From Candidatus Latescibacterota bacterium (lineage in GTDB: Bacteria; Latescibacterota; UBA2968; GCA-2709665): a stretch of DNA of 64,000 nt. Positions within the stretch are counted from its first letter, which is position 1. Each line of letters opens with the position of its first letter. Shown piece by piece: positions 48,092 through 64,000 of this stretch. The stretch covers positions 736,001-800,000 of the forward strand of contig OZ241917.1 of NCBI GenBank assembly GCA_965203805.1. Direction: 5' to 3'. The translations under genes and the position numbers were made by a program. The notes under the pieces were generated by a model. The model worked only from the letters and a program-made list of their open reading frames with translations, searched no databases and had not been told where the DNA came from.

Positions 48092-49306
48092 TCAGCCGAT
48101 TCGCTGTTCGCGCAAGGCTTCCAGCAGGCAGTCGACGTGGTCGAATCCGTTGATGATGTGGGTAGACACCCGGATCCAGTGGGCCCCGTCTATCCTTTCC
48201 ACCGGCACGGTGATCCGAAATCTATCGTAAAGGTCGAGGCTCTCGAAGCCCGCAACGTGGAATGCAGAGATTAAACCCGACATGCCGGCGCCGGACGGTG
48301 TGAGCAGTCTTGCCCATCCGGTTGCCGCCATGCCTTCCCGAAGATAGGCCGCCAACGCCCTGCCTCTATTCAGAATACGATACTTGCCAACCTGTTCCTG
48401 GAAATCGACGGCTTCAGCTACGGCGGCGAATACGGCCTGATCCCGGGTGCCCCAGTTCTCAAGCCCCCACATATACGGACGGTCGCCCAGTCTCAACACG
48501 CCGTCCGCATCGCGTCTTGGGCCCTCTCGGTTGTATCCCCAGCTTACGATGACGTGATCCAGATGCTCTTGCGCGAGCGGAGACGCGTAGAGGAACCCCG
48601 TACCCTTCGGCGCGCATAGCCACTTGTGACAGTTTCCGCCGTAAAAATCACAATCCATGGCATTCAGGTCCAGGGGGATCATGCCCGGGGCATGGGCGCC
48701 GTCGACTGCAATCATCGCACCTCTCTGGCGGGCAAGGCGCGCCAGCGCGCCAATTGGCGCGATCAGGCCGGTGCGGGTGAAAATGTGACTGCAGAGGACC
48801 AGCCGTGTGCGGCCGGTAAACCCCTCTTCAAAGGCATCCACGATATCGTCGGGATTGTTCGTCGTCAGCGGAATCCTGGCGCGCTTCACGACAACCCCGC
48901 GTCGTCGTTCCACATGGTGGAGGCAGTGATCGATTGCACCATATTCCTTGTCAGAGGCGAGGATTTCATCTCCGCGGCGCCAATTCAGACCATTGATCAC
49001 CATATTGATCGCGACTGTAACGTTGCAGGTAAACGCGATGTTCTCCGGCGGCGCGTTGATAAAGCCACCCAGCCGGCGGCGACCTTCGTCCACGGCACCC
49101 GCGTGTTTTGCACGATTTCGGATCGGGCTGCGTTCAACGTCCTCGAGAATCGCGGTCATTTGCTCGAAGACCCGCCTGGGCTGAACGCCAACGGATCCGG
49201 TGTTGAGATAGATCTCGTCGGCGCCGATCATAAACGATTTGCGAATCTTTCGCCAATAGGCTTCCTCGGCCGTGGAAGTGGGCCAGGCCGCGTCAGGAGA
49301 GTGCAC
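48092..49306 (-). CDS. Class V PLP enzyme (isopenicillin-N epimerase / cysteine lyase-like)
   Basis: YLNTGS.G, EY, VDGAHAPG, NCHKWLCAPKGTG, GTRD, IRVSTH; GGAGGT RBS before GTG. Confidence 0.85.
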   Translation of the reverse strand: MHSPDAAWPTSTAEEAYWRKIRKSFMIGADEIYLNTGSVGVQPRRVFEQMTAILEDVERSPIRNRAKHAGAVDEGRRRLGGFINAPPENIAFTCNVTVAINMVINGLNWRRGDEILASDKEYGAIDHCLHHVERRRGVVVKRARIPLTTNNPDDIVDAFEEGFTGRTRLVLCSHIFTRTGLIAPIGALARLARQRGAMIAVDGAHAPGMIPLDLNAMDCDFYGGNCHKWLCAPKGTGFLYASPLAQEHLDHVIVSWGYNREGPRRDADGVLRLGDRPYMWGLENWGTRDQAVFAAVAEAVDFQEQVGKYRILNRGRALAAYLREGMAATGWARLLTPSGAGMSGLISAFHVAGFESLDLYDRFRITVPVERIDGAHWIRVSTHIINGFDHVDCLLEALREQRIG

Positions 49307-49682
49307 CGGTACCTCCCGGTCTGAAAGCGTACAACGGTTTGAGCCAGCGACAGCTGTGGCCCGGGAAAGGACGGACTGCGGGTTGCCGCACAATTGTAAA
49401 TTCCAGACCGTCTGCAATCAAGTCCTTTGTGCGCGAAACCGGGATCGTTCCCGGGAATGCCGGGCGCATCGCCGGGGTCCGCTGCCGTGTCGTTCTCCTT
49501 GCGGAAACCTGGACGACTGAACACGTTCGGCGAGACCTGCAGGTGTTTCGGGTGCGGCGCGGGCCGGAATCCTTCACGAGGTCGCAACCCGGCCGATCGG
49601 GGACTTTCGATCGGCGAGGCGCGTCGGGGTCCGGCGTGATTGTCCCGGCGACACCACGAGGTTCGGTCTGCTGTAACCTACC

Positions 49683-49711
49683 TTGACAGCGTAATTTATC
49701 TTGTCTATATT
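49683..49711 (+). promoter_or_regulatory. Sigma-70-like promoter for the formate dehydrogenase operon
   Basis: TTGACA-17 nt-TATATT, about 280 nt upstream of the first CDS. Confidence 0.65.
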
Positions 49712-49991
49712 ATCTTGAGCAATCGCCGGCGGCTGCCGTTTGCAAGGCGTTTGACTGCGGTTTTCGCTGGTGCACGCAAGACGGGCAATCGATGTCTTCA
49801 TTATCCGTCGATCGCTTCAGGAATCATTCCGTATCGTTGCACTTGTTTCTGTTTGGATTCGGTGAACTGAAGCGCGGCCGGTCGACGATCTGAAATCGTC
49901 TTTCTGGTTCCGGCCGATTCCCGGCGAAAGCAGCCTGGTCGATCCGGATTCAGGCGGGTGGTTTGCCAACAGGCATCGATGGGAGCGTACA

Positions 49992-51653
49992 ATGGGGGGC
50001 CTTCGAGACGACGAGCTGGTTCGACGCTGGAAAGACGAGCCGGCGCCCCTGCTGCCATTGTTGCACGCGTTCCACGACCGGGATGGATATGTCTCCGATG
50101 AGGCCATCCGATCCATATCCGCGGGCTTGAAAACACCACTGGCGGATCTGTTTGGAACCGTTACGTTCTACCATCACCTATCCCGCAAGCCCGGGGGCCT
50201 GGATGAATATCGGGTGTGCACCGGCCCGGTATGCGCGCTTCGGGGAGCGCGGGAGATGTGCGATGCCCTTAACGGGGTTCCAATGGCATGCCCGGGCAGG
50301 TGCGATCAACCGGTACCCGTAATTCAGAACCACCGCGTACTCGTGGGTTCGAATGCAGGGTGCCTGCGGGAGGTCCCGACGCCACTGCCGGAAGACAACC
50401 CGGGCGGCTTCGATGAATGCGTCTTTCGTCATATTCGCGCGTCGAGCCGCTCGGAACTCCAGGGGTATCGCGAAACCCGCGGATACGACGGTCTGGAAGA
50501 AGCCGTAACCAGGATGGCGCCATCGGAGGTCGTGGAACGGGTCAAGGAGAGCGGGCTGGCGGGGCGCGGAGGGGCAGGCTTCCCCACGGGCGCAAAATGG
50601 AAGGCGGTTGCGGACGCCGGCGGCGGTACGAAGACGGTTGTATGCAACGCCGACGAAGGGGAACCCGGCTGCTTCAAGGATCGTGCCCTGATGGACTATG
50701 ATCCCCACTCAGTGCTGGAGGGAATGGCCATTGCCGCCTACGCAACCGGCGCCAAACGGGGGTTCATCTATCTTCGGTACGAGTACCCGCAGACGTTGAA
50801 CGTCCTGGAACGCGCCATCGGAGAAGCCGAGGCCGCCGGATTGCTTGGCAACGGCATTATGGGGACTGACTTCGACTTTCGGGTACATCTTCGGCGCGGG
50901 GGAGGGGCGTACGTGTGCGGAGAAGAGGGGTCGCTGCTCAACAGCCTGGAGGGCAAACACCCGTTCCCGAGAAACCGCCCGCCCTATCCCGTAACACACG
51001 GGTTCGAAGATATGCCCACGGCGGTAAACAACGTTGAAACGCTGGTTGCCGTACCTCAAATCCTCCGGAAAGGTGCGGATTGGTACCGGGCACTCGGACT
51101 GAACGGACATCCAGGCACCAAAATTATCAGTCTGTCGGGCGATATATCGAAGCCGGGGAATTACGAGGTCCCATTCGGCCTGCCGCTGAAGACCCTGCTG
51201 TACGATTGGGGTGGCGGCGCGCCCGGGGGTCGGAGCATCCAGGCGGTCACCATGGCCGGGCTGTCCGGAGGGTTCATCGCGGGTGAGGCACTGGAAGCCA
51301 CGCTGGATGAACCCGGCCTCCGCAGTTTCGGTTCTTTTCTGGGCGCCGGTGGCATCATCGTCTTTGACGCCAGCCGGAACATGGTCGAGGTTGCCCACGG
51401 CGCGATGGCCTTCTTTGCAGACGAGTCCTGCGGCAAGTGTTTTCCGTGCCGCATCGGGACTCGCCGGCTGTCCGAGAGGCTTAAGGGCGACGGCCCCCGG
51501 CATGCCGGGCCGTGGCGGGCGGAGGTCCATGATATCGGCCAGACCATGATGGCGACCAGCGCGTGCGGATTGGGCACGGCGGCGCCTCTGGTGACCGAAA
51601 GCCTCATGAAGTACTTTCCGAATCAGGTGGAGACGCACATCGCACGCCAGTAG
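49992..51653 (+). CDS. NAD-linked formate dehydrogenase diaphorase subunit (NuoE-NuoF fusion)
   Basis: TFYH..CTGPVC..CPGRCD (2Fe-2S), GRGGAGFPTG.KW, NADEGEPG, YVCGEE, ESCGKCFPCR..C. Confidence 0.9.
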   Translation: MGGLRDDELVRRWKDEPAPLLPLLHAFHDRDGYVSDEAIRSISAGLKTPLADLFGTVTFYHHLSRKPGGLDEYRVCTGPVCALRGAREMCDALNGVPMACPGRCDQPVPVIQNHRVLVGSNAGCLREVPTPLPEDNPGGFDECVFRHIRASSRSELQGYRETRGYDGLEEAVTRMAPSEVVERVKESGLAGRGGAGFPTGAKWKAVADAGGGTKTVVCNADEGEPGCFKDRALMDYDPHSVLEGMAIAAYATGAKRGFIYLRYEYPQTLNVLERAIGEAEAAGLLGNGIMGTDFDFRVHLRRGGGAYVCGEEGSLLNSLEGKHPFPRNRPPYPVTHGFEDMPTAVNNVETLVAVPQILRKGADWYRALGLNGHPGTKIISLSGDISKPGNYEVPFGLPLKTLLYDWGGGAPGGRSIQAVTMAGLSGGFIAGEALEATLDEPGLRSFGSFLGAGGIIVFDASRNMVEVAHGAMAFFADESCGKCFPCRIGTRRLSERLKGDGPRHAGPWRAEVHDIGQTMMATSACGLGTAAPLVTESLMKYFPNQVETHIARQ

Positions 51654-51693
51654 CTGGCGCGTATTAACCGTAACCGAATCCGGAAGGCGGGGA

Positions 51694-54423
51694 ATGATGG
51701 TTGCAGATGGGGATAAAGCCGATACCGCCACAATGACGCTGGACAGCCAGACGGTCGGGTTTTCCGACGGGGAAACCGTTTTTGACGTTGCGCAAAGGCA
51801 CTCGAAATTCGTGCCGACCCTGTGTTACGATTCCCGCCTGAAACCCTTCGGCAGCTGCCGCCTCTGCGTGGTCGACGTGGAAGGCGAGCGAACCCCCCTT
51901 GCGTCGTGCACGACGCCTGCAACGCCCGGGATGGTGGTTCGCACGCAAACGGATGCAATACAGAAACACCGTAAGGTGTTGCTGGAGTTGGTGGCCTCCG
52001 AAAACCCTGAAGTGGATGTAGACCCCCTTAGCGGCTATGCCTCCCAGGAACTGGCCACGCTTGTCGATCAATACGGCGCGCGGACGGGCCGGTTCAGAGG
52101 CGACCGTTCCGGACGCAGCAAGCCGGAGGACGACAACCCGTTTCTGCTGCGAGATTACGACAAGTGCATTTCCTGTTACCGTTGCGTCCGGGTGTGCGCC
52201 GAGCAGGAGGGTGACGACGCAATCAGCGTGATGAACCGCGGCTTCGACACTCAGATCGTTACCGAATTCGACGGCTTGCTGAAAGCGTCGTCGTGTACAT
52301 TCTGCGGGCAGTGTATTCAAACGTGCCCAACGGGCGCCCTTGCGGACCGGAAAGCGCTCCGGGCGGCCGGCGAACCGGGAAAAATAGAAAAGATCCGGAC
52401 TGTCTGTCCGTATTGCGGGGTGGGTTGTTCGGTTGACATGATGACAAAAGGGGAGAAGATCGTAGGCATCCAGCCCGCTATGGACGGTCCTGCGAACCTG
52501 GGTGCGCTTTGTGTAAAGGGGCAGTTTGCGTTCGATTTCGTGCAGCACCGCGACAGGTTGCAGACGCCGCTGGTGCGGCGGGAAGACGGCAGGCTGCACG
52601 AATCCGGCTGGGAGGAGGCGCTGGATCGTGCGGCGCAGGGATTCATGGATGCGCGGGCGGCACATGGAGAACTGAGCGCGTACGGCATCGCGTCCGGCCG
52701 TGCGCCAACGGAGGCCGCTTATGTGATGGGCAAATTCATCCGCGCCGGATTCGGTACCAACTATATAGACAACTGCAGCCGTGCCTGACACGCCCCTACG
52801 GTTGCCGGTCTGGCAGCCACGGTCGGACGGGGCGCGATGTCGAATCCGCTGGTCGACATGGAAAAGCCCGATGTGTTCTTCTGCATCGGGACGAATATGA
52901 CCGAGTGTCATCCGGTGGCGGCCACGCGGATGAAGAAAGCGGTACGCGGGGGTGCGAAGCTGATCGTGGCGGATCCTCGGCGCATCCCGCTGGCGGAGAT
53001 GGCGGATCTGTATCTTCCGTTGCGTGTGGGGTCGGATGTTGCCCTTCTGCTTGCGATGGCGCACGTGATTGCGAGGGAGGGGTTGATCGACAGGGGGTTT
53101 GTCGAGAACCGGACGACGAAGGCCGCGGACTTTCTTGAGCACGTGAAGGAATATCCCCCGGAGTGGGCCGAACGGATTACGGGGGTGCCGGCGAAGGATA
53201 TCGAACTCGCCGCGATCTGGTACGGCATGGCGGACAAGGGCGCCATCTACTATACGCTGGGCATCACAGAACACATCTGCGGCGTCGACAACGTTCAGAG
53301 CCTGTGCAACCTGGCGCTGATGACGGGAAACGTGGGCCGCGAAGGTACAGGCATCAATCCCATGCGCGGTCAGAACAATATCCAGGGCGCGGGGGATGCA
53401 GGCGCTATCCCGGACAAATTCCCCGGGTTCCAGGCGTGCGATGATCCCGGGACGGCGGCGAGATTCTCGCGAATTTACGGACGGCCTCTGAAACCGGAAA
53501 AGGGAATAACGAAGGTGGCGGCGCTGAACCTGTGCGGAGACCGCATCCGCGCCATGATGATCGACGGCGAGAACACGGTCGTATCCGATCCTGACAGGGC
53601 GCACTGCGAGCGCGCATTGCAGAGCCTGGACCATCTGGTCGTGATCGACATCTTCCTGACCGAAACGGCCAGACTTGCCGACGTCGTGCTGCCGGCGACG
53701 GCATGGGGCGAAACGGACGGGACGTGTTCGAACACGGAGCGGCGCGTCCAGCGTCTGCGCGCCGCGGTCCCGCCCCCCGGTGAGGCCCGCCCGGATTGGT
53801 GGATCGTCAGCGAGATTGCGAAACGGATGGGAGCGCAGGGGTTCGACTTCACTTCCGCGAAAGACGTGTTCAACGAACTGTGCGCCGTGTCCCCGATATA
53901 CGCGGGATTGAATTGGGATCGAATCGAACATGGCCAGTACCATTGGCCGGTCCCTGACGCCGATCATCCGGGCACGCCGATGCTGCACGAAGGCGAATTC
54001 GTGAATGGCCGAGGCATCTTCACAAAGCATCGCTATCGCAATCCGGCGGAGACGGTCAGCGAAGACTATCCCGTATGGTTGACGACCGGCCGCAGACTGC
54101 ACGCGTACCATACGCGGACTCAGACCGGAAGGGCCGCGGGGATGGACTATTTTCTTTCCGAAGAGTCGCTGGAGGTGCATCCGTCGGACGTAGCGGCCTG
54201 GGGGCTTAGCGACGGCGGCTGGTGCCTGATGTCGAGCGCACGCGGTTCCATCCGGATCAAGGTCAAGGCGACCCGGCAGTCTCCCCGGGGGACTGTGTTC
54301 GCCAGTTTCGGCTTCAACGACGTTCCGGTGAATATCCTGACGGGTTCGGGCTACGATCCGGTGACGGAAACGGCCGAATTGAAGGTATGCCCGGTTCGTA
54401 TTGAATCAGTTGTGCCAAAATGA
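51694..54423 (+). CDS. fdhF: Formate dehydrogenase alpha subunit, selenocysteine-containing (TGA 52786-52788 read through)
   Basis: ORFs 51694-52788 and 52837-54423 share one frame; DNCSRA-U-HAPTV active site; N-terminal Fe-S clusters, CPYCGVGC, RGQNN.QG. Confidence 0.93.
52789..52834 (+). promoter_or_regulatory. Bacterial SECIS element
   Basis: GGTTGCC-GGTCT-GGCAGCC hairpin begins 11 nt after the TGA; lower stem CGCCCC/GGGGCG. Confidence 0.85.
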
Positions 54424-54444
54424 TTTAATCCCGAAAGTTAAAGG

Positions 54445-55275
54445 TTGAATTCAGGCATTACACAGCGCGACGTGTCGAGGGTGAACAACGGCTTTCCGGC
54501 GCGTCCGGTTCAGGACGATATCGCGGTTGAAGAGCCCCTGGAAATCCGCGTGGCCGGGGATCCCGTTGCCGTAACGATGCGGTCGCCGGGAGACGACGCC
54601 CGGCTTGCGGTGGGATTTCTCTTTTCAGAAGGGATTATTGCGTCCATCGAGGACGTCGGACGGGTATTTCACTGCGGAAGGCCGGGGACGGAGGGGTACG
54701 GAAACGCGATCGACGTGCTGCCCGCGCCCGGCCACAGCCTGGATATCGAGCGGGTCGCCGCCAGCCGCCGGGGAACACTCACGACGTCGGCGTGCGGGGT
54801 CTGCGGGCGCCAGGGCGTCGAAGACCTGATGGCGCGTTGTTCTGTTTTGCCGCCCGGGCCGCGGATATCGGCAGAACTGCTCCTGGATACGATTGAACGG
54901 ATGACGCGGATTCAGCCCACGTTCACCCATACCGGCGGCGTGCACGCCGCCGCCGCGTTCGGCCGGGACGGCCGCCCGCTTGTGTGTTCTGAAGACGTCG
55001 GCCGCCACAATGCCGTGGACAAGACGATCGGCGCCCTGCTGTTCGACCGTCTGGTGGGCGCGTCATCGGGCGCGGCCCTGCTGGCCGTAAGCGGCAGAGC
55101 GAGCTTTGAAATCGTGCAGAAAGCGGCGGTCGCGAAAATCCCGATTGTCGCAAGCGTTTCCGCGGCCAGTTCTCTCGCGGTCGATCTCGCAGCCGATGCG
55201 GGCATCACCCTTGCGGGTTTCGTACGCCGCAAGGGCTTCAACCTGTACGCGCACCCCGAACGGATCGGACAATAA
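54445..55275 (+). CDS. fdhD: Formate dehydrogenase accessory sulfurtransferase FdhD
   Basis: VEEPLEI, TMRSPG, SACGVCG, TGGVHAA, EDVGRHNAVDK, SGRASFE. Confidence 0.95.
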   Translation: MNSGITQRDVSRVNNGFPARPVQDDIAVEEPLEIRVAGDPVAVTMRSPGDDARLAVGFLFSEGIIASIEDVGRVFHCGRPGTEGYGNAIDVLPAPGHSLDIERVAASRRGTLTTSACGVCGRQGVEDLMARCSVLPPGPRISAELLLDTIERMTRIQPTFTHTGGVHAAAAFGRDGRPLVCSEDVGRHNAVDKTIGALLFDRLVGASSGAALLAVSGRASFEIVQKAAVAKIPIVASVSAASSLAVDLAADAGITLAGFVRRKGFNLYAHPERIGQ

Positions 55276-55503
55276 ATGCCTATCTTCGAGTTCATCTGCG
55301 GCAGTTGCCGCCATCCCTTCGAGGCGATCATTCAGGGGTCCCGGGAGCCGCGCTGTCCGTCCTGTGGCAGCGCCGAACTTGAGAAGCAGCTTTCGGTTTT
55401 CGCTGTCAGCGGGGGCAGCGGTCGGACGGAGGCGCCCGCGCCCACGGGACCATGCAGAACCTGCGGAGACCCCAGGGGCCCGGGCGCCTGTTCGATCAGC
55501 TAG
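55276..55503 (+). CDS. FmdB family zinc-ribbon protein
   Basis: MPIFEFICGSC...CPSCGS..LEKQLSVF; Cys-rich tail. Confidence 0.88.
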   Translation: MPIFEFICGSCRHPFEAIIQGSREPRCPSCGSAELEKQLSVFAVSGGSGRTEAPAPTGPCRTCGDPRGPGACSIS

Positions 55504-55571
55504 GAGCCCGTCCCGAAAATATGTCACCATCCATCCGCCGATTCATCGCGACCCGGCGCCCGAATTCAGGC
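55500..55571 (+). mobile_element. Internally deleted, degenerate copy of the IS630-related MITE
   Basis: CTAGGAGCCCGTCCCGAAAATATGTCACCATCCATCCGCCGATTCATC resembles the MITE left end; CCGAATTCAGGC matches its right part. Confidence 0.65.
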
Positions 55572-55606
55572 GATCGGTCTCCGGTACGGAACACCGGACA
55601 TCATAG

Positions 55607-55633
55607 CCCGGTTCATAACACCGGGTTTTTTTT
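55607..55633 (+). terminator. Rho-independent terminator of the fdh operon
   Basis: CCCGGT-TCATAAC-ACCGGG followed by a T run. Confidence 0.75.
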
Positions 55634-55870
55634 GTGTACATAAAACGAGGAATCAACACATTTTCAACCGAACCCCATGAACTCGGAGATCGTCTTCCGC
55701 GTTAACGTTGCAAGAATTGCATTTGTGCATTCTGACATACGAACCTATCTTTGGCGGCGTCGGCTGATTCTTACGTTGTCCCGCGAGATTGACCGCGTGA
55801 ACGCATGTTTTGCGTGGTCCCGGTCGAACCGGAACGAACGCGGTCCGGCCTTGCCCGGGGAGAATGCTGT

Positions 55871-57607
55871 ATGAGCGGCCTCTACTCGAAAGCCTACCAG
55901 CGGATACGACGACTGTTCGCGGAGGACCGTTGTGTGATTCTGGACGGCGGCGTCGCAACGGAACTGGAACGCATAGGGCGTCGGGACCACGCCGTCAGCG
56001 ATCACAGCCTCTGGGGGACGTCGGCGCTGTACCATGAACCCTATTCGGTTCTTGATGTACACAGACGGTTCGCAGAGGCCGGCTGCGACCTGATTTCAAC
56101 CAACACGTGGGGGATCCTCGACGCGGCGGAGATGGGCGGACAAGGGTTGGACTCCGTGGCCGGCATCTCGCACTGGATGGACGTTGCGCGACGTGGTATC
56201 AGGTTGGCGCGACAGGCGAATCGGGAGTCGGGCCGGGAAAACGAGTGTGCGGTGGCTTTCAGCATGAATGGAGACATTGATACGCCCCAACGTCTCGAAC
56301 GACTGCAGCTGCTTTCGAGGGTATTTACAGACGACCCGCCCGATCTCATTCTGCTGGAGACGATGTCCATTATCCGGGACGATCTCACGCTGCCTGCCGT
56401 CGAGCTGATGATCCAATCGGGGATTCCGGTGTGGCTGAGTTTTCGGCGCTGCCGGAAGGGGCTGTGCGGGGTCCACGGACAGCATTGGGGCGGTCCGGAA
56501 GGCGATTATTTCGGCAGATTGGCCGGCCGTTTTGAACGAATGAAAATAGGCGCCCTCCTGATCAATTGTCTCCCGGTGGACCACGTACCGGGCATGATCT
56601 CCTGGCTGAGGGATTTTACGGATCTCCCGCTGGGCGTGTACCCGAACCTGGGGCGTTACCTTGACCCGGGGTGGAAATTCGACGAGACCGTCGGCCCCCC
56701 GAGTTTTGCCGCGCTGGCCCTTGCATGGCGCGACGAGGGCGCGCAGATCGTCGGCGGGTGCTGTGGCGTCACACCCGATCACATTGCCGCAGCACGGGAG
56801 GCGCTGGCCGGTACCCTGCCGGGACGAAAGCGGGTCCGGCCGCAAACAACCCCGGCGGCCGGAAGCCGGAAGGACGAACCGGTTGTTCCGCGCCCGTGGG
56901 TGGACACGGACGGGGGGGCGCTCTTTCCGCTGCCGTTCCCTGAGATTATGTGCGACCCGGGAGTATTCGCACCCACGCAGGGGAGCTTTCTGATCTGGAA
57001 GCACCTCTTTCGAACGGGCGCCGGGCAGGGCAAACGCTGTCTGGACGTGGGTTGCGGCACCGGAATCCTCTCCGTGCAACTCGCGTTGAACGGAGCGGAA
57101 CAGGTTGTGGCAATCGATATCCAGAAAGAAGCCATCGGCAACACGATGACGAACGCATTTCGAAACGGCGTGGCCGACCGTATTTCCGCGCGGGTCGAGG
57201 ACCTCTACACCTACACTCCGGAAGAGCGGTATGACCTGGTGATCGGCAGCCTCTATCAGATGCCCGTGGATCCTGTCCGGCATACGACCGGGCACCGACC
57301 CGCGGATTTCTGGGGCAGGAATCTGTTCGATCATCTCATTGCGCTGCTGCCTGAGATGCTGGCTGATGACGGTGTCGCCTACCTGATGCAGATATCGGCC
57401 TTGAGTCAGCTTCGGTCATCCGAACTGATTTCAGCCGCCGGTCTGAAAGCGAAGGTCATCGACTTCAGCTTTTTTCACTTCGGCCCGGTATTCAATGAAA
57501 ATTCCGATCAGATCCGGCGGGTCGCCGAGCTGTCGGACGCCTTTTACCTGAGCTTTGGCCGGGACAACGTCATGGTGATGTACCTGCTTGAGATCAACTC
57601 GAATTGA
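55871..57607 (+). CDS. Homocysteine S-methyltransferase domain fused to class I SAM-dependent methyltransferase
   Basis: ILDGGVATEL, W....L, AGCDLISTNT, ETM, INC, YPN, VGGCCG; Pro-rich linker; then GVF.P, LDVGCGTG, IDI. Confidence 0.85.
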   Translation: MSGLYSKAYQRIRRLFAEDRCVILDGGVATELERIGRRDHAVSDHSLWGTSALYHEPYSVLDVHRRFAEAGCDLISTNTWGILDAAEMGGQGLDSVAGISHWMDVARRGIRLARQANRESGRENECAVAFSMNGDIDTPQRLERLQLLSRVFTDDPPDLILLETMSIIRDDLTLPAVELMIQSGIPVWLSFRRCRKGLCGVHGQHWGGPEGDYFGRLAGRFERMKIGALLINCLPVDHVPGMISWLRDFTDLPLGVYPNLGRYLDPGWKFDETVGPPSFAALALAWRDEGAQIVGGCCGVTPDHIAAAREALAGTLPGRKRVRPQTTPAAGSRKDEPVVPRPWVDTDGGALFPLPFPEIMCDPGVFAPTQGSFLIWKHLFRTGAGQGKRCLDVGCGTGILSVQLALNGAEQVVAIDIQKEAIGNTMTNAFRNGVADRISARVEDLYTYTPEERYDLVIGSLYQMPVDPVRHTTGHRPADFWGRNLFDHLIALLPEMLADDGVAYLMQISALSQLRSSELISAAGLKAKVIDFSFFHFGPVFNENSDQIRRVAELSDAFYLSFGRDNVMVMYLLEINSN

Positions 57608-57741
57608 AGGGGTCTGCAGACGCCGCGCACCGGCATTGTGCGGTTCGATAGACTGCGCGGCGGTATCGCGCATCTCCGTACCCGGCGTACAGGAGCGATT
57701 TGCCCGGGCAGAGCGAATTCGATAGACACGGGGAATGCAAG

Positions 57742-58572
57742 ATGGACGATCGGTTCCTGAAGGGACGCGCCGCGATTGTCACGGGAGGCGCAAGTGGACT
57801 CGGCAGGGCAATCGCGTTGCGCCTGGCGCACCGCGGCGCGGACGTCTGCATCATGTCCCTGAGCAGCCAGCGGGTGGAGAAAGTCGATAGCGAGGTCAAA
57901 TACTTCGCGGACGTCGGCGAAATCGAGACGACCCGTCGGGAGATACGGGAATCGGGTGTACGGTGTATCGGTCTGGACGGAGACGTCAGTTCGACGTCGG
58001 ACGTAGAGGATATGATCGTTCGGACGGTCGAGACATTCGGCAGGCTGGACGTCCTGGTGAACAATGCCGCGACAAACGTGATCCATCCCGTCCTCGGCCA
58101 CGACAACCGGGCCTGGCGGCGAGTGATCGATGTCAATCTGTTCGGTCCCTACCTTTGCGCGCGGAACGCGCTGCCCCATATGATTGAGAATGGCTGGGGA
58201 CGCATCGTCTCAATCGGTTCCACAAATTCCCATGTCGGCGCGTCCAGTTACAGTGCCTACGCCGCATCGAAGCACGGGCTGCTGGGGTTCAGCCGATCCC
58301 TCGCGCTGGAAGTGGCCCACTACCACATTACGGCCAACACCATCAGCCCGGCGACGATCGAGACGCCATCCGGGCGGATGCATCTGCTCCGGTGGGCAAA
58401 GGACCAGGGCCTTTCTCCCGAAGCCATGCGCGGAGAGTTCATGAAGTCCTATCCGCAGGGGAGATTCCTTCGCCCGGAAGAGATCGCAGACCTGGTTGTC
58501 TATTTGTGCCGGGAAGAAGCGCGGGGAATCAACGGCGAAGATATCCGTGTGACAACGGGCGCGATGTACTGA
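57742..58572 (+). CDS. Short-chain dehydrogenase/reductase
   Basis: TGGASGLG, NNA, S..S, YAASK, SP. Confidence 0.92.
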   Translation: MDDRFLKGRAAIVTGGASGLGRAIALRLAHRGADVCIMSLSSQRVEKVDSEVKYFADVGEIETTRREIRESGVRCIGLDGDVSSTSDVEDMIVRTVETFGRLDVLVNNAATNVIHPVLGHDNRAWRRVIDVNLFGPYLCARNALPHMIENGWGRIVSIGSTNSHVGASSYSAYAASKHGLLGFSRSLALEVAHYHITANTISPATIETPSGRMHLLRWAKDQGLSPEAMRGEFMKSYPQGRFLRPEEIADLVVYLCREEARGINGEDIRVTTGAMY

Positions 58573-58619
58573 GATGAACCGCAGGGTCCTCTCACGGGTT
58601 TCCGATTGTTGAGGAGACG

Positions 58620-59405
58620 GTGATGGATCTGGGATTGAAAGGCCGCCGGGCCCTGGTGACAGGCGCGAGCAAGGGGATCGGCCGGGCAATTGCATACGAG
58701 CTGGCAACGGAAGGCGCGGACCTGGCAATCTGCGCCCGCGGACCGCGCGCCCTTGAGGATACGGCGGCGGCGTTGGAGGCGGCAACGGGCGTGAACGTGT
58801 TCGCGGGCACGGCGGATGTAACGGTTGACCGCGAAGTCCGGGCTTTCGTGGACGAGGCCGCCGCCGCGCTGGGCGGGCTCGATGTCCTCGTGAACAACGC
58901 CGGGAGTGCGCTTCCGGGCACCTTCGAAGAGGTGGACGAGGGTCGCTGGCGCGCGGACCTGGACGTAAAGCTTTTCGCCGCGATGCGATGCGTGCGTACC
59001 GCCCTTCCTCATCTGAAACAGAGTCCGCAGGCCAGGATCATCAATATAAACTCGATTGTCGGACGCCAGATTGCACCGGAATACATCGCCAACAGCACCG
59101 ATCGAGCGGCGTGTCTGGCGTTCAGCAAAGGCCTGGCTGACAATCTGGCAAAGTACGGCATTCTTGTAAACAGCGTGAATCCCGGCAACGTCAGAAGCCA
59201 GGCATGGGACAGCACGCTGGACTACTTCGCGCCGGACGCGGAACTGGAAGACTATTACGTCCAGGCGAGCCGGGAAACGCCGCTGGGCAGGGTGGCGGAC
59301 GCGGGCGAGATTGCCGCGGTGGTGGCCTTTCTGGCCAGCAAGCGGGCAAGCTACATCACGGGAGCCTCCATCGATGTGGACGGCGGACTGGTGAGGTATA
59401 TCTAG
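58620..59405 (+). CDS. Short-chain dehydrogenase/reductase with atypical active site
   Basis: TGASKGIG, NNAG, PG, TPLGR, YITG...VDGG; canonical YxxxK replaced by NSTDR. Confidence 0.88.
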   Translation: MMDLGLKGRRALVTGASKGIGRAIAYELATEGADLAICARGPRALEDTAAALEAATGVNVFAGTADVTVDREVRAFVDEAAAALGGLDVLVNNAGSALPGTFEEVDEGRWRADLDVKLFAAMRCVRTALPHLKQSPQARIININSIVGRQIAPEYIANSTDRAACLAFSKGLADNLAKYGILVNSVNPGNVRSQAWDSTLDYFAPDAELEDYYVQASRETPLGRVADAGEIAAVVAFLASKRASYITGASIDVDGGLVRYI

Positions 59406-60565
59406 TGTTTCGTCCCAGGAGTAACTTGCAAAAATAGTTCACTTGCCATAGATTCCCTATAGCGAAAGGAGGAATCTATGGCCAGGGGACGTCCGTTAGC
59501 GCCACTGAGTATTGGGGATGAGGTTCGTGCGCAACTGGAAACCATTTCCCGTTCAAGAAGCATGTCGCACAGTCTTGTGTGCCGGGCGAAGATCGTTCTG
59601 ATGAGTGATCAAGGGCTGTCGAATCAGCAGATCGGACGACAGCTTGGTCTGTCGGGAGCCACAGTCGGGAAGTGGCGCCGTCGGTTTTTAGAACAAGGTC
59701 TGATGGGGCTTTATGATGAATTGCGCCCCGGGGGGCCCCGCTCGATCAGCGATGAGCGCATCGCCTCGCTGATTCATGCAACGCTCAAAGACAAGCCGTC
59801 GGGAGCCACCCACTGGACCTGCCGCTCTCTGGCAGCCCAGACGCAACTGTCCAAGTCCACGGTTCAGCGCGTGTGGAAAGCGTTTGGTCTACAGCCGCAC
59901 CGGCAAAAACACTTCAAGCTGTCCAATGATCCGTTCTTTGTCGAGAAGGTACGTGACATTGTCGGACTGTATCTGAACCCTCCCGACAACGCGATGGTAT
60001 TATGCGTTGACGAAAAGAGTCAGATCCAGGCATTGGAACGAACGCAGCCGATATTGCCTTTGGGGTTGGGCTATGTGGAAGGGGTCACCCACAATTATAT
60101 CCGGCACGGCACCACGACCTTGTTCGCCGCGCTGGAGGTCGCTTCCGGCAAGGTGCTGGCCCAATGCAAACCCCGACATCGACACCAGGAATTTTTACAA
60201 TTCCTCAAATATATCGACCAAAACGTCCCGAAGGACCTTGACATTCATCTCGTCGTCGACAACTACGCCACGCACAAGCACGAAAAAATCAAACGCTGGA
60301 TCGCAGCCAGGCCCCGATACCACGTTCACTATACACCGACCTATGCGTCCTGGCTCAACCAGGTCGAGATCTGGTTCGGCATCATTACCCAGAAAGCCAT
60401 CCGACGCGGGACCTTCAAAAAGGTGAAAGACCTCATCGCCAACATTCAGGATTTCACCAACCATTATAACGCCAACTCACGACCGTTCGTCTGGACCGCC
60501 ACCGCAGAATCGATCCTTGACAAGATTACCAGACTTTTTGAACTAATTCATGGGACAAGACACTA
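59403..60565 (+). mobile_element. IS630 family insertion sequence
   Basis: TA-GTGTTTCGTCCCA ... TGGGACAAGACAC-TA inverted ends with TA duplication in a CTAG context. Confidence 0.92.
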
Positions 60566-60566
60566 G
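59478..60566 (+). CDS. IS630 family transposase (intact single ORF)
   Basis: HTH region (RAKIVL, TVGKWRRRF), DDE triad VDEK / VDNY / NQVE; AAGGAGG RBS; stop lies in the right end. Confidence 0.95.
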   Translation: MARGRPLAPLSIGDEVRAQLETISRSRSMSHSLVCRAKIVLMSDQGLSNQQIGRQLGLSGATVGKWRRRFLEQGLMGLYDELRPGGPRSISDERIASLIHATLKDKPSGATHWTCRSLAAQTQLSKSTVQRVWKAFGLQPHRQKHFKLSNDPFFVEKVRDIVGLYLNPPDNAMVLCVDEKSQIQALERTQPILPLGLGYVEGVTHNYIRHGTTTLFAALEVASGKVLAQCKPRHRHQEFLQFLKYIDQNVPKDLDIHLVVDNYATHKHEKIKRWIAARPRYHVHYTPTYASWLNQVEIWFGIITQKAIRRGTFKKVKDLIANIQDFTNHYNANSRPFVWTATAESILDKITRLFELIHGTRH

Positions 60567-60730
60567 TGTCCTGTCCCAAAAATACCTCACCATTCTTCCG
60601 CAGATTCATCCCGTCTCGCGGCGTTGCCATCGCTCGCCGACCGTGCCAGGTCGCCTGCGCTCCGGCGCCTTGCGAGCCGGGCGACTCTGCGGCCGAATTC
60701 AGGCAACTTATTTCTGGGACAAGACACTAG
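60563..60730 (+). mobile_element. Non-autonomous MITE with IS630-type ends
   Basis: CTAGTGTCCTGTCCCA ... TGGGACAAGACACTAG; right end identical to that of the adjacent IS630; no transposase. Confidence 0.85.
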
Positions 60731-62985
60731 TGTCCAATCCTCGTTTCGAGAGACTGTCGCCCGTCCCCGGCCTCGGGCTGGAGGGCTACGCCGACGAGAT
60801 GACGATCCCGGCCGGAGCGGAAATCGCGTTCAAGCTGGGCGGACCGCCAGGTGAGGTGGACGTGAACGTCGCGAGACTGATTCACGGAGACCCCGATTCC
60901 CGCGGACCGGGTTACAGGGAAGAACGTGTCTCGTGGGGGCAGCCGGATCGGGTTGCGGTAGAGGAACGGGCCACGGATTACGGATCGTTTGTCGAGATTC
61001 CACACGCCGCAACCCTGAATCCGGCAGACGCGTTTACCCTGGCGCTCTGGTTTCTGCCGACGCTGGGCGGCGGGGGATGGCGCGCCCTTATGGTGAAGTG
61101 GGCGCGCGAAAATCTGTGCTACGGGATTTTCTTCGCCGGCGAGCGTTTTCTGACCGCTGCCGTGTCTCAGGACGGGAGGAAGACGCACTGGGCAACGGCC
61201 AGAGAGAACATCCATATTGGCAACTGGCAGTTCGCGGCGTTCTCGTACCGCCCGGAACCGGGTGAAATTCGTCTGTACCAGCTGATCGGGGACACCGCGG
61301 GTGTGGTCGAAACCCGTTCGTCTTCCGATGCGCTGAGTTGCATATCGAAGAAAACCGGAACAGGCCCGGTCTTCGCGGGAACCGCGCCGCTGGTGTTCGG
61401 CGCCTGTCCGGACCCAGACCGGAAAGGCAGCCACTGGGCGCATTTTACGGGAAAGATAGGACACCCGGTGCTTTTTGGTACCGCTCTGGATCGGGAGGCG
61501 ATCCATGCCCTCGCGGGGGGACAGGACCCCTCATCCCTCGGCCCGCTGCTGGGTTGCTGGCATCTGGGCGAGGAGGTGACCGGCGCCCGCGTCGTCGATC
61601 TTTCCGGAAACGAGAATCACGGGCACGCCGTAAATGCGCCGGGGCGTGCGGTTACGGGCCCGTTCTGGCGGGGAATGCCATCCCGGCTCTATACCGATCG
61701 GCCCGGGGATTACAACGCGATCTATCTGCACGAAGACGACCTGGAAGACGCAGGATGGCCGACTTCCTTCCTGGCCGAAGTTCCCGCCGACGCCAGGTCA
61801 GGCATCTATACGCTCCGCGCCGAGACGGGTGCGGACACACTCTTCGTTCCGTTCATCGTGACGTCGAAGAAACCGCTGTCGGAACTGGCATGCCTGATCC
61901 CCACGCTTACGTGGCAGGCCTACGGAAGCAACCGCGCGGCGTACAGTTTTACGGAAGACGGGGTGCTGGACCGCACCCTGTGCACCTACGACGTTCACAG
62001 CGACGGGTCGATGGTAACCTATTATTCGCGACTGCAGCCCACGCGGGGCTGGAACCCCGGTGCGGGCTTCCAGAACTGGGGCGCGCACAATATCACCGCG
62101 AATCTCTACCTGATTGACTGGCTGGAAGCGCTTGACTTCGAATACGAAGTCTTTGCGGACGAAGACCTGCATCGCGGCGGCGCCGGGCTCCTCTCGAAAT
62201 ATCGGTGTGTAATTCTGGGCAGCCACCCCGAATACCACACTGAAACCATGGTGGACAGCCTAGCCGCGTACGTGCGAAACGGGGGCCGCCTCGTCTATCT
62301 GAGCGGCAATGGCCTGTACTGGGTGATGTCCATCGACTCCCGCCGTCCGCACCTGATCGAACTTCGCCGGGGAGGAGAAGGCGACTACGGCCCCACGTAC
62401 GATCCCCCACCGGGTGAATCCCAGCACAGCACGACGCTCGAACTGGGGGGCCTGTGGGCAAGGCGCGGGCGTCCGCCCCGCAGGACGGTCGGCGTCGAAC
62501 ATGCGTCCAATTCCTGGATAGAAGCCGGAGAAAAAAGGGGATTCCGTCGCCTGCCGTCGAGCAAAGACGCCAGGTACGCGTGGATTTTCAACGGCGTCGG
62601 TGACGATGAGGCCATCGGAGACTTCGGCCTGAATCTGGGCAGCGCGGCCGGATTTGAAATGGATGCCGTGCAGTCCTGGGCATGGGACGAGTCCACACCC
62701 GAACCCGTGGTACTCGCACGGGCGGCGCATCCCGGATTCACCCCCGCCCGTCGCACGCACGTTCCGCCCACCGCGGACATGGCCATTATGGTATATCCGG
62801 GGGGAGGCGCGGTCTTTTCGGCGGGTTCCGTAACCTGGACCGGAAGCCTCTCCCACAATGATTATCGGAACAATGTTTCCGCCATCACCCGAAACGTGAT
62901 TCGCAGATTTCTGGAAGCGCCCGAAGGAGGCACGGTGCTCGAAGGCGCCGTTGATACATCACCGCCGGGCGCATCCTGGACATGA
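60730..62985 (+). CDS. N,N-dimethylformamidase large (beta) subunit family protein with LamG-like insert
   Basis: GYAD, L.HGD, H.DDL.DAGW, SGIY, PTLTWQAY, YD.HSDGS, GSHPEY, YLSGNG.YW, AAGFEMD, GAVFSAGS..W; GTG start inferred. Confidence 0.85.
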   Translation: MSNPRFERLSPVPGLGLEGYADEMTIPAGAEIAFKLGGPPGEVDVNVARLIHGDPDSRGPGYREERVSWGQPDRVAVEERATDYGSFVEIPHAATLNPADAFTLALWFLPTLGGGGWRALMVKWARENLCYGIFFAGERFLTAAVSQDGRKTHWATARENIHIGNWQFAAFSYRPEPGEIRLYQLIGDTAGVVETRSSSDALSCISKKTGTGPVFAGTAPLVFGACPDPDRKGSHWAHFTGKIGHPVLFGTALDREAIHALAGGQDPSSLGPLLGCWHLGEEVTGARVVDLSGNENHGHAVNAPGRAVTGPFWRGMPSRLYTDRPGDYNAIYLHEDDLEDAGWPTSFLAEVPADARSGIYTLRAETGADTLFVPFIVTSKKPLSELACLIPTLTWQAYGSNRAAYSFTEDGVLDRTLCTYDVHSDGSMVTYYSRLQPTRGWNPGAGFQNWGAHNITANLYLIDWLEALDFEYEVFADEDLHRGGAGLLSKYRCVILGSHPEYHTETMVDSLAAYVRNGGRLVYLSGNGLYWVMSIDSRRPHLIELRRGGEGDYGPTYDPPPGESQHSTTLELGGLWARRGRPPRRTVGVEHASNSWIEAGEKRGFRRLPSSKDARYAWIFNGVGDDEAIGDFGLNLGSAAGFEMDAVQSWAWDESTPEPVVLARAAHPGFTPARRTHVPPTADMAIMVYPGGGAVFSAGSVTWTGSLSHNDYRNNVSAITRNVIRRFLEAPEGGTVLEGAVDTSPPGASWT

Positions 62986-63016
62986 ATGGTGACGTCACAC
63001 GGGAGAGCACGATCCC

Positions 63017-64000
63017 ATGAAAGCCGTACATTCAGAAGCCCCCCGGGACCTGATGCAGCGCCTGGACGAAGACGGAGTCATATGCGCAGAGGGATATCTG
63101 TTTGAACTCGAGCGTCGAGGGTATCTGCAGGCGGGCCCTTTCGTGCCTGAAGTCGTGCTGGAGCATCCCGAGGTCGTCGCGGGGTTGCATCGGGAATTCT
63201 GGCGCGCGGGTTCGGACGTGATCGAGGCGTTTACCTATTACGGACACCGCGAAAAGCTGCGACTTATCGGCAAGGAACACCTTCTGGAACCCCTGCAGAA
63301 GCGCGCGCTGGCGATCGCGAAATCGGTAGCCGCCTCGGTCGACGGAGAACCCCCGCTGGTTGCCGGAAATATCTGCAATACCAACGTCTGGGATCCGGCC
63401 GATCGCGCGACCGACGCTCAGATTTCGGAGATGTTCGACGAACAGGTAGCCTGGGCGGCCGATGCCGGCGTCGATTTCATGATTGCCGAGACTTACTCCT
63501 TTTTCGGCGAGGCCGCACTGGCGTTGAAAGCCATCAAGCGCGCCGGCATGACGGCGGTGGTGACGTTTGCCCACCATCGGGAGAAAGGGCTGCGGGACGG
63601 CGTCCTGCTTGATGAGGCCGCAAAACGTCTGGAACAGGCCGGCGCCGAGGTGGTGGGGGTAAACTGCACCAGAGGGCCGCAGACGATGTTGCCCGACGTG
63701 GAACGCATTCGGCGTGCGGTATCCTGTCACGTGGCGGCATTGCCGGTGCCGTATCGAACCACTGAGGACCAGCCCACGTTTCAGGCGCTCCGGGAGGCGG
63801 GTTCCGAACCTCTTCCCGAGGGGCGTTCGTTTCCGACGGCTTTGGATCCCTTTACCTGCCACCGGTACGAAATGGCCGCGTTTGCTCGTCGGGCCTTCGA
63901 AATGGGTGTCCGGTACCTGGGTGTCTGCTGCGGGTCCGGACCCCATCACGTCCGATCCATCGCCGAAGAACTGGGGCGAACCCCGCCGGCCAGCCAATAC
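63017..64000 (+). CDS. Betaine-homocysteine methyltransferase-like protein (3' truncated; absent from ORF track)
   Basis: Manual translation: ICAEGYLFELERRGYLQAGPFVPEVVLEHPE, AGSDVIEAFTYY, VGVNC, LGVCCG; frame runs off the window end. Confidence 0.9.
   Translation, partial: MKAVHSEAPRDLMQRLDEDGVICAEGYLFELERRGYLQAGPFVPEVVLEHPEVVAGLHREFWRAGSDVIEAFTYYGHREKLRLIGKEHLLEPLQKRALAIAKSVAASVDGEPPLVAGNICNTNVWDPADRATDAQISEMFDEQVAWAADAGVDFMIAETYSFFGEAALALKAIKRAGMTAVVTFAHHREKGLRDGVLLDEAAKRLEQAGAEVVGVNCTRGPQTMLPDVERIRRAVSCHVAALPVPYRTTEDQPTFQALREAGSEPLPEGRSFPTALDPFTCHRYEMAAFARRAFEMGVRYLGVCCGSGPHHVRSIAEELGRTPPASQY

Follow-up and report, generated by a model that had tools for sequence, protein, structure and literature searches.

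The closest described relatives of the system reported here are amidases of the N,N-dimethylformamidase (DMFase) family. In the Paracoccus enzyme, DmfA1A2 (PDB 6LVB, 6LVC and 6LVV), according to part of the published account, Y399, Y440 and E521 are the iron ligands, H519, N547 and E657 are essential, and F693 of the neighbouring DMFase subunit forms a constriction that shuts out larger amides; the large subunit by itself is inactive (PMC7686228). AceAB of Pigmentiphaga is, as far as the part of its description used here goes, a DMFase-like acetamiprid amidase that does not hydrolyse N,N-dimethylformamide (DMF), and it shows that other C-N bonds are cleaved within the family (PMC11573777). The third member is an N-acetyl-(R)-beta-phenylalanine acylase (PDB 8HUY, 8I59 and 8I5A), whose PDB entries name one molecule only, which suggests that an acylase of this type works without a small subunit. 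Here we analyze the gene cluster around a further homolog, designated DMFL, which is encoded in a 64,000-nucleotide stretch (the window) of the genome of Candidatus Latescibacterota bacterium (contig OZ241917.1, positions 736,001 to 800,000).

The cluster is a genuine, multi-phylum but composite gene set, which is built around a core of two short-chain dehydrogenases/reductases (SDR1 and SDR2) and the amidase DMFL. The reading that we prefer is the catabolism of an N-methylated, amide-bearing organic acid by such a composite cluster, split in this strain by an IS630-family insertion sequence, and we judge the chances of its being correct to be about even. We infer that the substrate of the cluster is not DMF. 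The window lies within a single contig of 5,865,457 bases, in a genome of 5.87 Mb; the interval read was 49900-64000, and all of the genes described there are on the + strand. In order, they comprise a gene for a fusion of homocysteine methyltransferase (HMT) and S-adenosylmethionine (SAM)-dependent methyltransferase domains, SDR1, SDR2, the IS630 element, a miniature inverted-repeat transposable element (MITE), DMFL and BHMTL (a betaine-homocysteine methyltransferase, BHMT, homolog), and then, beyond the window, an acetolactate synthase (ALS)-like thiamine diphosphate (ThDP) enzyme, a DAO-family flavoenzyme and a 415-aa RidA-like protein. The first-pass annotation had listed five co-oriented genes, from the fusion to BHMTL. 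Their domains and common orientation stand; a sixth open reading frame (ORF) between SDR2 and the amidase, that of the IS630 transposase, had been overlooked, and the cluster does not end at the fifth gene, since the genes carry on past base 64000.

DMFL (60730..62985, +) belongs to the DMFase large-subunit family; it has 751 aa and a GTG start, and carries the modules PF20254 (DMFA2_C) and Laminin_G_3. A longer gene model of 811 aa, starting at 60550, was rejected as an artefact that reads through the MITE, the true start being the GTG at 60730, as in the orthologs P0001-P0006. The searches were made with the translation of 60733-62985 (750 aa, without the first residue). On the long ORF, DMFA2_C covers residues 373-773 and scores 231.3 bits against a cut-off of 27. 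The match to 6LVB is end to end (E 5.7e-82; long-ORF residues 75-790 aligned to 4-756; ∼30% identity), and the acylase 8HUY, which is of the same family, scores nearly equally and is thus as close (E 5.1e-80, 272.6 bits, aligned over 76-788).

Like DmfA1A2, DMFL has the three-domain large subunit and keeps the six catalytic residues. The motifs WQAY, YDVH and HPEY, which had been read as an iron site, indeed align with Y399, Y440 and H519/E521 of the Paracoccus enzyme, and the residues of DMFL are identical at all six positions (Y399, Y440, E521, H519, N547 and E657). The equivalents of Y399, Y440, H519, E521 and E657 are invariant in 14 DMFL orthologs. F693 falls into an insert state and has no aligned residue in DMFL, the alignment of this loop being unreliable at 30% identity. 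Judged from these residues, DMFL would use a 2-Tyr-1-Glu iron site to hydrolyse an amide C-N bond. The genome contains five PF20254 genes, among which DMFL alone is of full three-domain length.

In contrast to DmfA1A2, DMFL has no alpha (small) subunit, either in the locus or in the genome. The queries were DmfA1 of P. aminophilus pAMI2 and a small ORF of an Agrobacterium vitis plasmid, which share 37% identity (E 2e-26). With tblastn they matched nothing in the whole genome (best E 0.77), nor were there any matches in 27 loci with a DMFL of at least 54% identity or in 11 loci at 40-53%; the spacers that flank DMFL are moreover too small for an alpha-subunit gene. Among the homologs below 40% identity, an alpha gene was found upstream in 11 of 104, while the other 93 lacked one. 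The absence of the subunit, which had been taken as a hint at a substrate other than DMF, is therefore upheld as an observation but says little about the substrate: enzymes without alpha are the rule in the family. The A. vitis ORF overlaps the start of a DMFase-beta-like gene on plasmid NZ_CP056050.1 (L106:8603-12589). This pair, in which alpha is present, lies beside a sugar ABC transporter and solA (N-methyltryptophan oxidase), so that an amidase and an amine oxidase are neighbours there as well.

The genetic setting of DMFL also differs from that of its relatives. On pAMI2 the DMFase is accompanied only by a LuxR-type regulator, together with dmfA1 and dmfA2. AceAB, again as far as its partial description goes, is a two-subunit enzyme with a xenobiotic substrate, whereas DMFL is alpha-less and occurs within a conserved multi-gene cluster.

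The two SDRs upstream of the amidase form an unusual pair. SDR1 (57700..58572, +; Pfam adh_short, 172 bits) starts at TTG 57700 or, more likely, at ATG 57739, and is a classical SDR with the motifs VTGGASGLG (TGxxxGxG) and YAASK, both kept in 7 of 7 orthologs. In SDR1 a conserved stretch of ∼25 residues is inserted behind the second strand, and the best NCBIfam models for the protein are 3-hydroxybutyrate dehydrogenase and the mycofactocin-coupled SDR, all below their cut-offs; the insertion and the mycofactocin-type score may point to a tightly bound cofactor. SDR2 (58620..59405, +; stop TAG at 59403-59405) matches Pfam as a divergent SDR and has the Rossmann motif VTGASKGIG. In its sequence PEYIANSTDRAAC, N and R stand at the positions of the catalytic Y and K of YxxxK, as placed by hand alignment to the classical SDR pattern. 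The motif NSIVGRQxxPEYIANSxDRAAC was kept in all seven orthologs aligned, from four phyla, and the label of atypical SDR given earlier to this protein holds in that N...R replaces YxxxK in each of them. The lack of the Tyr and Lys, together with the constant adjacency of the two genes, suggests that SDR1 and SDR2 form a heteromer in which SDR2 would be a partner subunit.

The conservation of the cluster was analyzed in three sets of loci: 25 genome loci with a DMFL of at least 54% identity, seven loci at 40-53%, and three long metagenome contigs (L107, L108 and L109). The distribution of DMFL orthologs was determined among 41 genomes. Some of the compared loci are kin and do not count as independent observations. 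Synteny in other genomes had been set beforehand as the test of the cluster, and the gene order was found to be kept, beyond chance. Within the genus, the order FdhA-FdhD-fusion-SDR1-SDR2-DMFL-BHMTL-ThDP enzyme-flavoenzyme is the same in 13 of 13 long loci, the FDH (formate dehydrogenase) genes at its start being considered below; the RidA-like gene occurs in 12 of these (it is missing in L039), as does the ABC-2 gene further downstream. DMFL orthologs are present in all 14 other genomes of the genus (81-95% identity), and in the genera g2 and g5 at 64-70% identity, where the gene of G018 is cut by contig ends. The genera g3 and g4 and the sister family contain paralogs only, at no more than 39% identity.

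The 25 loci belong to Latescibacterota, Bryobacterales (four loci), Alphaproteobacteria (one) and Acidiferrobacteraceae (two). SDR1 and SDR2 were located upstream of DMFL in 23 of them; L029 has no upstream sequence, and in L037 a transposase lies directly upstream. The pair also precedes DMFL in all three metagenome loci, which repeat three patterns. BHMTL was detected in 21 of the 25, the misses being the three proteobacterial loci and one truncated locus. Below this range the association disappears: the seven loci at 40-53% identity contain no SDR1 or SDR2 match above 36% (weak SDR-family matches of 26-36% occur in four) and no match to BHMTL, the ThDP enzyme or the flavoenzyme.

The genes that accompany the core vary among the lineages. 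In Latescibacterota and Bryobacterales it is joined by the BHMT-type gene, the sarcosine-oxidase-like flavoenzyme and the ALS-like ThDP enzyme, and in Latescibacterota by the RidA-like protein as well. In Bryobacterales, BHMTL and the flavoenzyme are paired with each other and lie apart from DMFL, at a distance of 1.4 to 7.5 kb. Outside the present genus, a gene of the enolase superfamily lies 5' of SDR1; its best 60 PDB matches are sugar-acid dehydratase and cycloisomerase types (galactonate dehydratase, anhydro-galactonate cycloisomerase). The interval between SDR2 and DMFL is occupied in other Latescibacterota by a LarA-like racemase, sometimes joined by a phosphotriesterase-like hydrolase, and in Bryobacterales and Proteobacteria by an isochorismatase-like hydrolase and a PhyH dioxygenase. 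The fullest Latescibacterota form, in L107, consists of FDH, the enolase-superfamily gene, SDR1, SDR2, the LarA-like gene, DMFL, BHMTL, PhyH, one further gene, the ThDP enzyme, a class I methyltransferase, the flavoenzyme and the RidA-like protein. The class I methyltransferase (259 aa) is present in both L033 and L107. In the Acidiferrobacteraceae-like contigs L041 (17039-18589, -) and L109 (17107-18582, -), an MttB-family gene is located 4.8 kb from DMFL, and a truncated MttB-family gene was found upstream of the cluster in L033 (3176-4108), from a Latescibacterota genus. Orthologs of the enolase-superfamily, LarA-like and phosphotriesterase-like genes are all missing from the present genome, whose best PhyH match lies elsewhere. 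The version of the cluster in this genus is accordingly a reduced derivative.

BHMTL (63017..64000 within the window, ending at window-equivalent 64084, +; 355 aa; PF02574, 139.6 bits) follows DMFL after 31 bp in this genus. It matches rat and human BHMT over residues 7-348 (E 1e-54), and the cysteines of its GVNC and GVCCG motifs align with Cys217, Cys299 and Cys300 of rat BHMT, which we take to be the zinc ligands. It shares the catalytic barrel and these three cysteines with the animal enzymes (PDB 1UMY and 1LT7), but is shorter than their 406-407 aa, the C-terminal part being missing. The animal type is closer than the rhizobial type, for which the equivalog NF005718 gives 86.3 bits, far under its cut-off of 338.

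Among the products of the downstream genes, the ThDP enzyme (534 aa) is nearest to catabolic acetolactate synthases (E 9e-73), and the DAO-family flavoenzyme (451 aa) is nearest, weakly, to sarcosine-oxidase/proline-dehydrogenase beta subunits (E 2e-16). In the 415-aa protein (L001:12425-13672, window-equivalent 67425-68672), Pfam recognizes a middle RidA domain only, and no internal repeats were found by sequence (blastp E at least 0.11, hhalign probability at most 0.5%). Its AlphaFold model (pTM 0.78, mean pLDDT 74) superimposes on the chorismatase structure 5AG3 with Z 23.1 and an rmsd of 3.1 Å over 280 aligned residues (model residues 18-401; 12% identity), compared with Z ∼14 for single RidA chains. 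The model thus indicates a chorismatase-type fold of three concatenated YjgF/RidA-like domains. The fold is common to the chorismatases of the FkbO/Hyg5 type (5AG3, 5A3K and 4BPS), which is no proof of chorismatase activity. The protein is conserved in the genus and is present in L107 at 58% identity.

In terms of function, the gene products could be arranged into a single route. DMFL would hydrolyse the amide C-N bond at its iron site; the BHMT-like enzyme would take a methyl group off an onium (betaine-type) nitrogen or sulfur, with homocysteine as the acceptor; the flavoenzyme would oxidise the N-methyl or free amine so formed to an imine, and the triple-RidA protein would hydrolyse the imine or enamine. 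The ThDP enzyme would decarboxylate or ligate a 2-oxo acid, and the SDR pair would carry out hydroxyl/carbonyl redox chemistry. The first-pass annotation had proposed a methyl-transfer and N-formyl catabolic route and had recognised no named pathway in it. Amide cleavage combined with demethylation gains some support from the occurrence of a BHMT-type gene with the amidase in Latescibacterota and Bryobacterales, and of an MttB-family gene in the Acidiferrobacteraceae-like contigs; the membership of the fusion, the formate link to FDH and the argument from the missing alpha subunit do not hold up. A search of the literature gave no published description of the gene set or of a matching pathway, in agreement with that annotation, and a paper on Latescibacterota from sponges contains none of six pathway terms.

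The clusters for hydroxyproline betaine and proline betaine contain the enolase-superfamily epimerase HpbD, Rieske-type demethylases and flavoenzymes of the D-amino-acid-oxidase type. Their logic is similar to that considered here, namely an enolase-superfamily enzyme (in the other lineages of the present cluster), N-demethylation, oxidation by a DAO-family enzyme and hydrolysis of an imine. They are not known, however, to include a DMFase-family amidase, an SDR pair or a ThDP enzyme. Unlike that of the HpbD clusters, the enolase-superfamily gene found here is closest to the sugar-acid dehydratases, and it is absent from this genus. These matches speak neither for nor against a role of the gene in other lineages as a betaine epimerase of the HpbD type.

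Several observations weigh against the catabolism of an N-methylated amide. The BHMTL family is very large (7999 of 8000 candidates scored at E <= 1e-30, with 63-75% identity across phyla), which fits a general betaine methyltransferase, perhaps independent of DMFL. Neither BHMTL nor the flavoenzyme accompanies the core in the three proteobacterial loci, and gene transfer may link the blocks of Latescibacterota and Bryobacterales. The enolase-superfamily, LarA-, phosphotriesterase- and isochorismatase-like and PhyH genes of other lineages are absent in this genus, so that the chemistry may vary from one lineage to another. A frameshift splits DMFL in G011, a genome of this genus (L044:10001-12210), and in G015 (L045:10001-12207), and the ortholog of G019 has an in-frame TGA (C238:3934-6156), which implies that the cluster is dispensable or decaying in some lineages. 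No uptake transporter was found in the cluster of this genome, the adjoining ABC-2 system looking like an exporter, and no enzyme of the cluster attains an NCBIfam equivalog cut-off.

Part of this evidence would also suit a mosaic, in which SDR1, SDR2 and DMFL degrade an N-acylated compound (for example, an N-acyl amino acid or amino-sugar acid) without any methyl chemistry, while BHMTL and the flavoenzyme represent an ordinary betaine/dimethylglycine-type module, the two having become neighbours by descent or transfer. Besides the size and high conservation of the BHMTL family and the bare core of the proteobacterial loci, it could draw on the separate BHMTL-flavoenzyme pair of Bryobacterales and on the resemblance of the enolase-superfamily partner to sugar-acid enzymes. 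Most bacteria have one or two PF02574 genes; the 11 of this genome (HMT/BHMT-type; e.g., at G000:C1:2550230-2552045 and 2515580-2517449), with two other tandem pairs, are a marked expansion and would also fit such a mosaic. It is countered by the presence of BHMTL in 21 of the 25 loci, across two phyla and in differing internal orders, by the fact that another lineage has an unrelated onium methyltransferase, of the MttB family, close to DMFL, and by the gap of just 31 bp between DMFL and BHMTL in this genus. On balance, this alternative merits serious weighing but is unlikely.

The preferred reading of amide catabolism can also be extended into a broader and more speculative proposal, which we put forward as distinctly unlikely in its entirety. 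Here, an undescribed catabolic route would operate in marine host-associated and free-living bacteria of at least four phyla. The alpha-less iron amidase and a heteromeric SDR pair, with one subunit silent, would open an amide, tertiary or cyclic, in a natural product or osmolyte that bears methyl groups; these groups would be salvaged to methionine by whichever BHMT-, HMT- or MttB-type enzyme the lineage possesses; the triple-RidA protein would perform a new enamine or enol-ether hydrolysis; and in Latescibacterota the C1 units would be oxidised via the selenocysteine FDH.

The relation of the cluster to this FDH bears on a further alternative, namely an integrated pathway in which the products of all five genes of the first-pass annotation, that of the fusion among them, would share a single methylated N-formyl or ring compound as substrate, with the formate oxidised by the adjacent NAD-linked enzyme. 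The selenocysteine FDH operon is present 5' of the cluster. It encodes a NuoE/NuoF-like diaphorase subunit (49992..51653, +; Pfam 2Fe-2S_thioredx, Complex1_51K and NADH_4Fe-4S), the catalytic subunit FdhA (51694..54423, +) and, as its last gene, the sulfurtransferase FdhD (54445..55275, +; PF02634, 223 bits; TIGR00129, 168.6 bits against a cut-off of 140.9). FdhA forms one frame across the selenocysteine TGA at 52786-52788 (...NCSRAUHAPTV...), where a SECIS_3 (selenocysteine insertion sequence) match at 52783-52841 scores 53.9 bits (E 2.6e-10), under the gathering score of 63; the same hit was obtained in L012 and L013.

The cluster does not, however, follow this operon directly. Between fdhD and the fusion gene there are 596 bp, in which a terminator-like hairpin (55605..55637, +) has an 8-bp stem with five G-C pairs and is followed by the T-run TTTTTTGTGT. 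A homologous hairpin is found at the same place in L012; a terminator scan of L013 did not find the fdhD hairpin, and L107 has only a weak site, with a 6-pair stem, three G-C pairs and no T-run. FdhD matches occurred in 15 of the 25 loci, all from Latescibacterota, and in the metagenome contig L107, but in none of the four Bryobacterales or three proteobacterial loci. We conclude that the FDH operon forms a unit apart from the cluster and is adjacent to it in one family only. The proposed passage of formate to the neighbouring FDH is thus unsupported.

The genes at the boundary between FdhD and SDR1 have been exchanged among the lineages. In genus g2 it holds a stand-alone HMT of 311 aa (L045), and in genus g5 a truncated MttB-family remnant. 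The notion that a methyltransferase always lies there proved false, as L107 has small ORFs instead. These ORFs, located between fdhD and the enolase-superfamily gene (L107:4447-5616, with a matching stretch in L033), are Abm-like (120 aa), FmdB-like zinc-ribbon (75 aa) and cupin (109 aa), names that reflect the look of the sequence only. That the adjacency outlived the exchange of these genes leaves room for a functional tie to FDH, although descent alone explains it equally well.

The fusion itself (55871..57607, +; 578 aa) combines PF02574 (131.6 bits) with a class I SAM methyltransferase domain, and its translation contains the Cys motifs INC and GGCCG. The N-terminal domain scores 108.2 bits with the MmuM/YagD-type equivalog NF007020, below the cut-off of 215. 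Homologs are numerous (2653 at E <= 1e-10, with 61-69% identity in several phyla) and are labelled Poribacteria, Acidobacteria, Planctomycetes, Tectomicrobia and others. In G015 the gene lies 1.13 Mb from the cluster, and it also occurs in G017 and G020, neither of which has a DMFL ortholog. Contrary to its earlier inclusion in the conserved set, the fusion stands as an independent gene of wide distribution, and this genus is the only one in which it adjoins the cluster. The S-methylmethionine cycle is a feature of plant biochemistry; by analogy, the thought arises that the fusion might represent this cycle in one protein, with SAM-dependent methylation of methionine and transfer of the methyl group to homocysteine.

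An integrated pathway would gain from the persistence of the FDH-cluster adjacency in four Latescibacterota genera despite the swapped boundary genes, from the HMT-type gene at the boundary in genus g2, and from the possibility that the flavoenzyme yields formaldehyde, an aldehyde dehydrogenase being encoded 5' of the FDH operon. DMFase itself yields formate, according to part of its published account (PMC7686228). The intervening hairpin and the independence of the fusion speak against such a pathway, as do the lack of FDH near the Bryobacterales and proteobacterial clusters, the equal closeness of DMFL to an N-acetyl acylase and, as far as the loop alignment can be trusted, the lack of an aligned counterpart of F693, which limits DMFase to small amides. 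It appears very doubtful. Finally, a biosynthetic cluster, in which a methylated small molecule would be made and exported by the downstream ABC-2 system, might account for the SAM-dependent methyltransferase domains (in the fusion and in the 259-aa class I enzyme of L033 and L107), for an ALS-like enzyme that could be a carboligase and for the lack of an importer, but it is highly improbable, given an amidase, an amine-oxidase-like flavoenzyme, RidA-type domains and BHMT-type demethylation that are typical of breakdown, a gene content that varies among lineages as in catabolic islands, and the absence of any core biosynthetic enzyme (NRPS, PKS or ligase).

In this strain the core is interrupted between SDR2 and DMFL by two mobile elements. 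The IS630-family insertion sequence (59405..60563, +; transposase 59478-60566; NF033545, 273.8 bits against a cut-off of 100) ends in TAGTGTTTCGTCCCAGG and CATGGGACAAGACACTA, which are imperfect terminal repeats. It is flanked by TA at 59403-4 and 60564-5, the left TA being part of the stop codon TAG of SDR2. Six further full-length copies with 99-100% identity are present in the genome. The element is missing at this site in all six relatives read. DNA contigs from the sequencing runs X9 and X4 join 59401 to 60563 and represent the IS-free form, while the top run, X1, contains the element. The insertion is therefore recent and strain-specific, and it splits SDR2 from DMFL and with them the transcription unit.

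The MITE (60566..60727, no strand assigned; 162 bp) has IS630 terminal repeats and fills the whole spacer between SDR2 and the amidase. There are eight near-full-length copies of it in the genome, together with ∼20 shorter matches. In the two closest relatives (G001 and G012) the MITE alone fills the spacer, and the four other genomes of the genus that were compared have no MITE, a plain spacer of 90-200 bp and a TTG start for DMFL. It is older than the adjoining copy of IS630. An ancestral overlap of the SDR2 stop and the DMFL start (TAGTG) was also considered, but was abandoned in view of the spacer and the TTG start in four of the six relatives; a joint of 59401 to 60727 in an X4 contig (a side of 21, seven ambiguous letters) hints at an empty overlapping site and is too short to be trusted. 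The pair of IS630 and MITE recurs at G000:C1:5511111-5512411 with 99% identity. Either insertion favours TA sites beside MITEs, or the two elements travel together.

No riboswitch or other RNA element was detected ahead of the cluster at E <= 0.1 in L001, L012, L013 or positions 49000-64000 of the window; the RNA scan returned only the SECIS and, across the terminator, an sRNA match at chance level. A scan for sigma-70 promoters returned one site, inside the IS, which is fewer than in shuffled sequences. Contigs of the RNA-library run X18 are at least 99% alike to every cluster gene inside the window; they are placed on the NuoE/F-like gene, fdhD, the junction of the fusion and SDR1 (57548-57900), SDR1/SDR2, DMFL (three contigs) and BHMTL. 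The sample behind this run also yielded the IS-free DNA run X9. The contigs provide a hint of cluster expression, with DNA carry-over possible, and are no proof of transcription. A gap of X18 in the bin 55081-55551, between fdhD and the cluster, which DNA run X9 covers, was dropped as a sign of a break in expression, since contigs cannot show absence.

Of the neighbouring genes, those 5' of the FDH operon encode a SpoIIE phosphatase, the aldehyde dehydrogenase mentioned above and a class V aminotransferase. The 415-aa protein is followed by an ABC ATPase, an ABC-2 permease with Golvesin_C and an RND-type gene. The permease (1123 aa, Golvesin_C at the C-terminus; L001:14683-18054, window-equivalent 69683-73054) is syntenic with the cluster across the genus. 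The first-pass annotation had advised a look for transporters beyond the window; the sequence there shows the exporter-like ABC-2 system and no importer in the cluster. Further upstream, positions 39520-43911 (+) encode a 1463-aa protein that contains five repeats of the Lamin Tail Domain and ends in a FlgD-Ig-like region.

All of the enzyme families in this locus are known; what is new is their conserved combination and the alpha-less DMFL clade with its Tyr/Lys-less SDR partner. The annotation of the amidase as "N,N-dimethylformamidase", the 811-aa gene model and the notion of an FDH-linked operon are each misleading here. Only three characterised activities were found in the DMFase family, towards DMF, acetamiprid and N-acetyl-beta-phenylalanine, and two of these substrates are man-made. 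The DMFL clade, in a gene set kept across four phyla, points to a natural substrate and role for a 2-Tyr-1-Glu iron amidase. With this substrate named, the Tyr/Lys-less SDR partner and the chorismatase-fold protein would each gain a functional assignment. The DNA of these uncultured bacteria occurs in sequencing runs labelled sponge, coral and marine metagenome, and knowledge of the substrate would reveal a further path by which carbon, nitrogen and methyl groups pass through communities of this kind.

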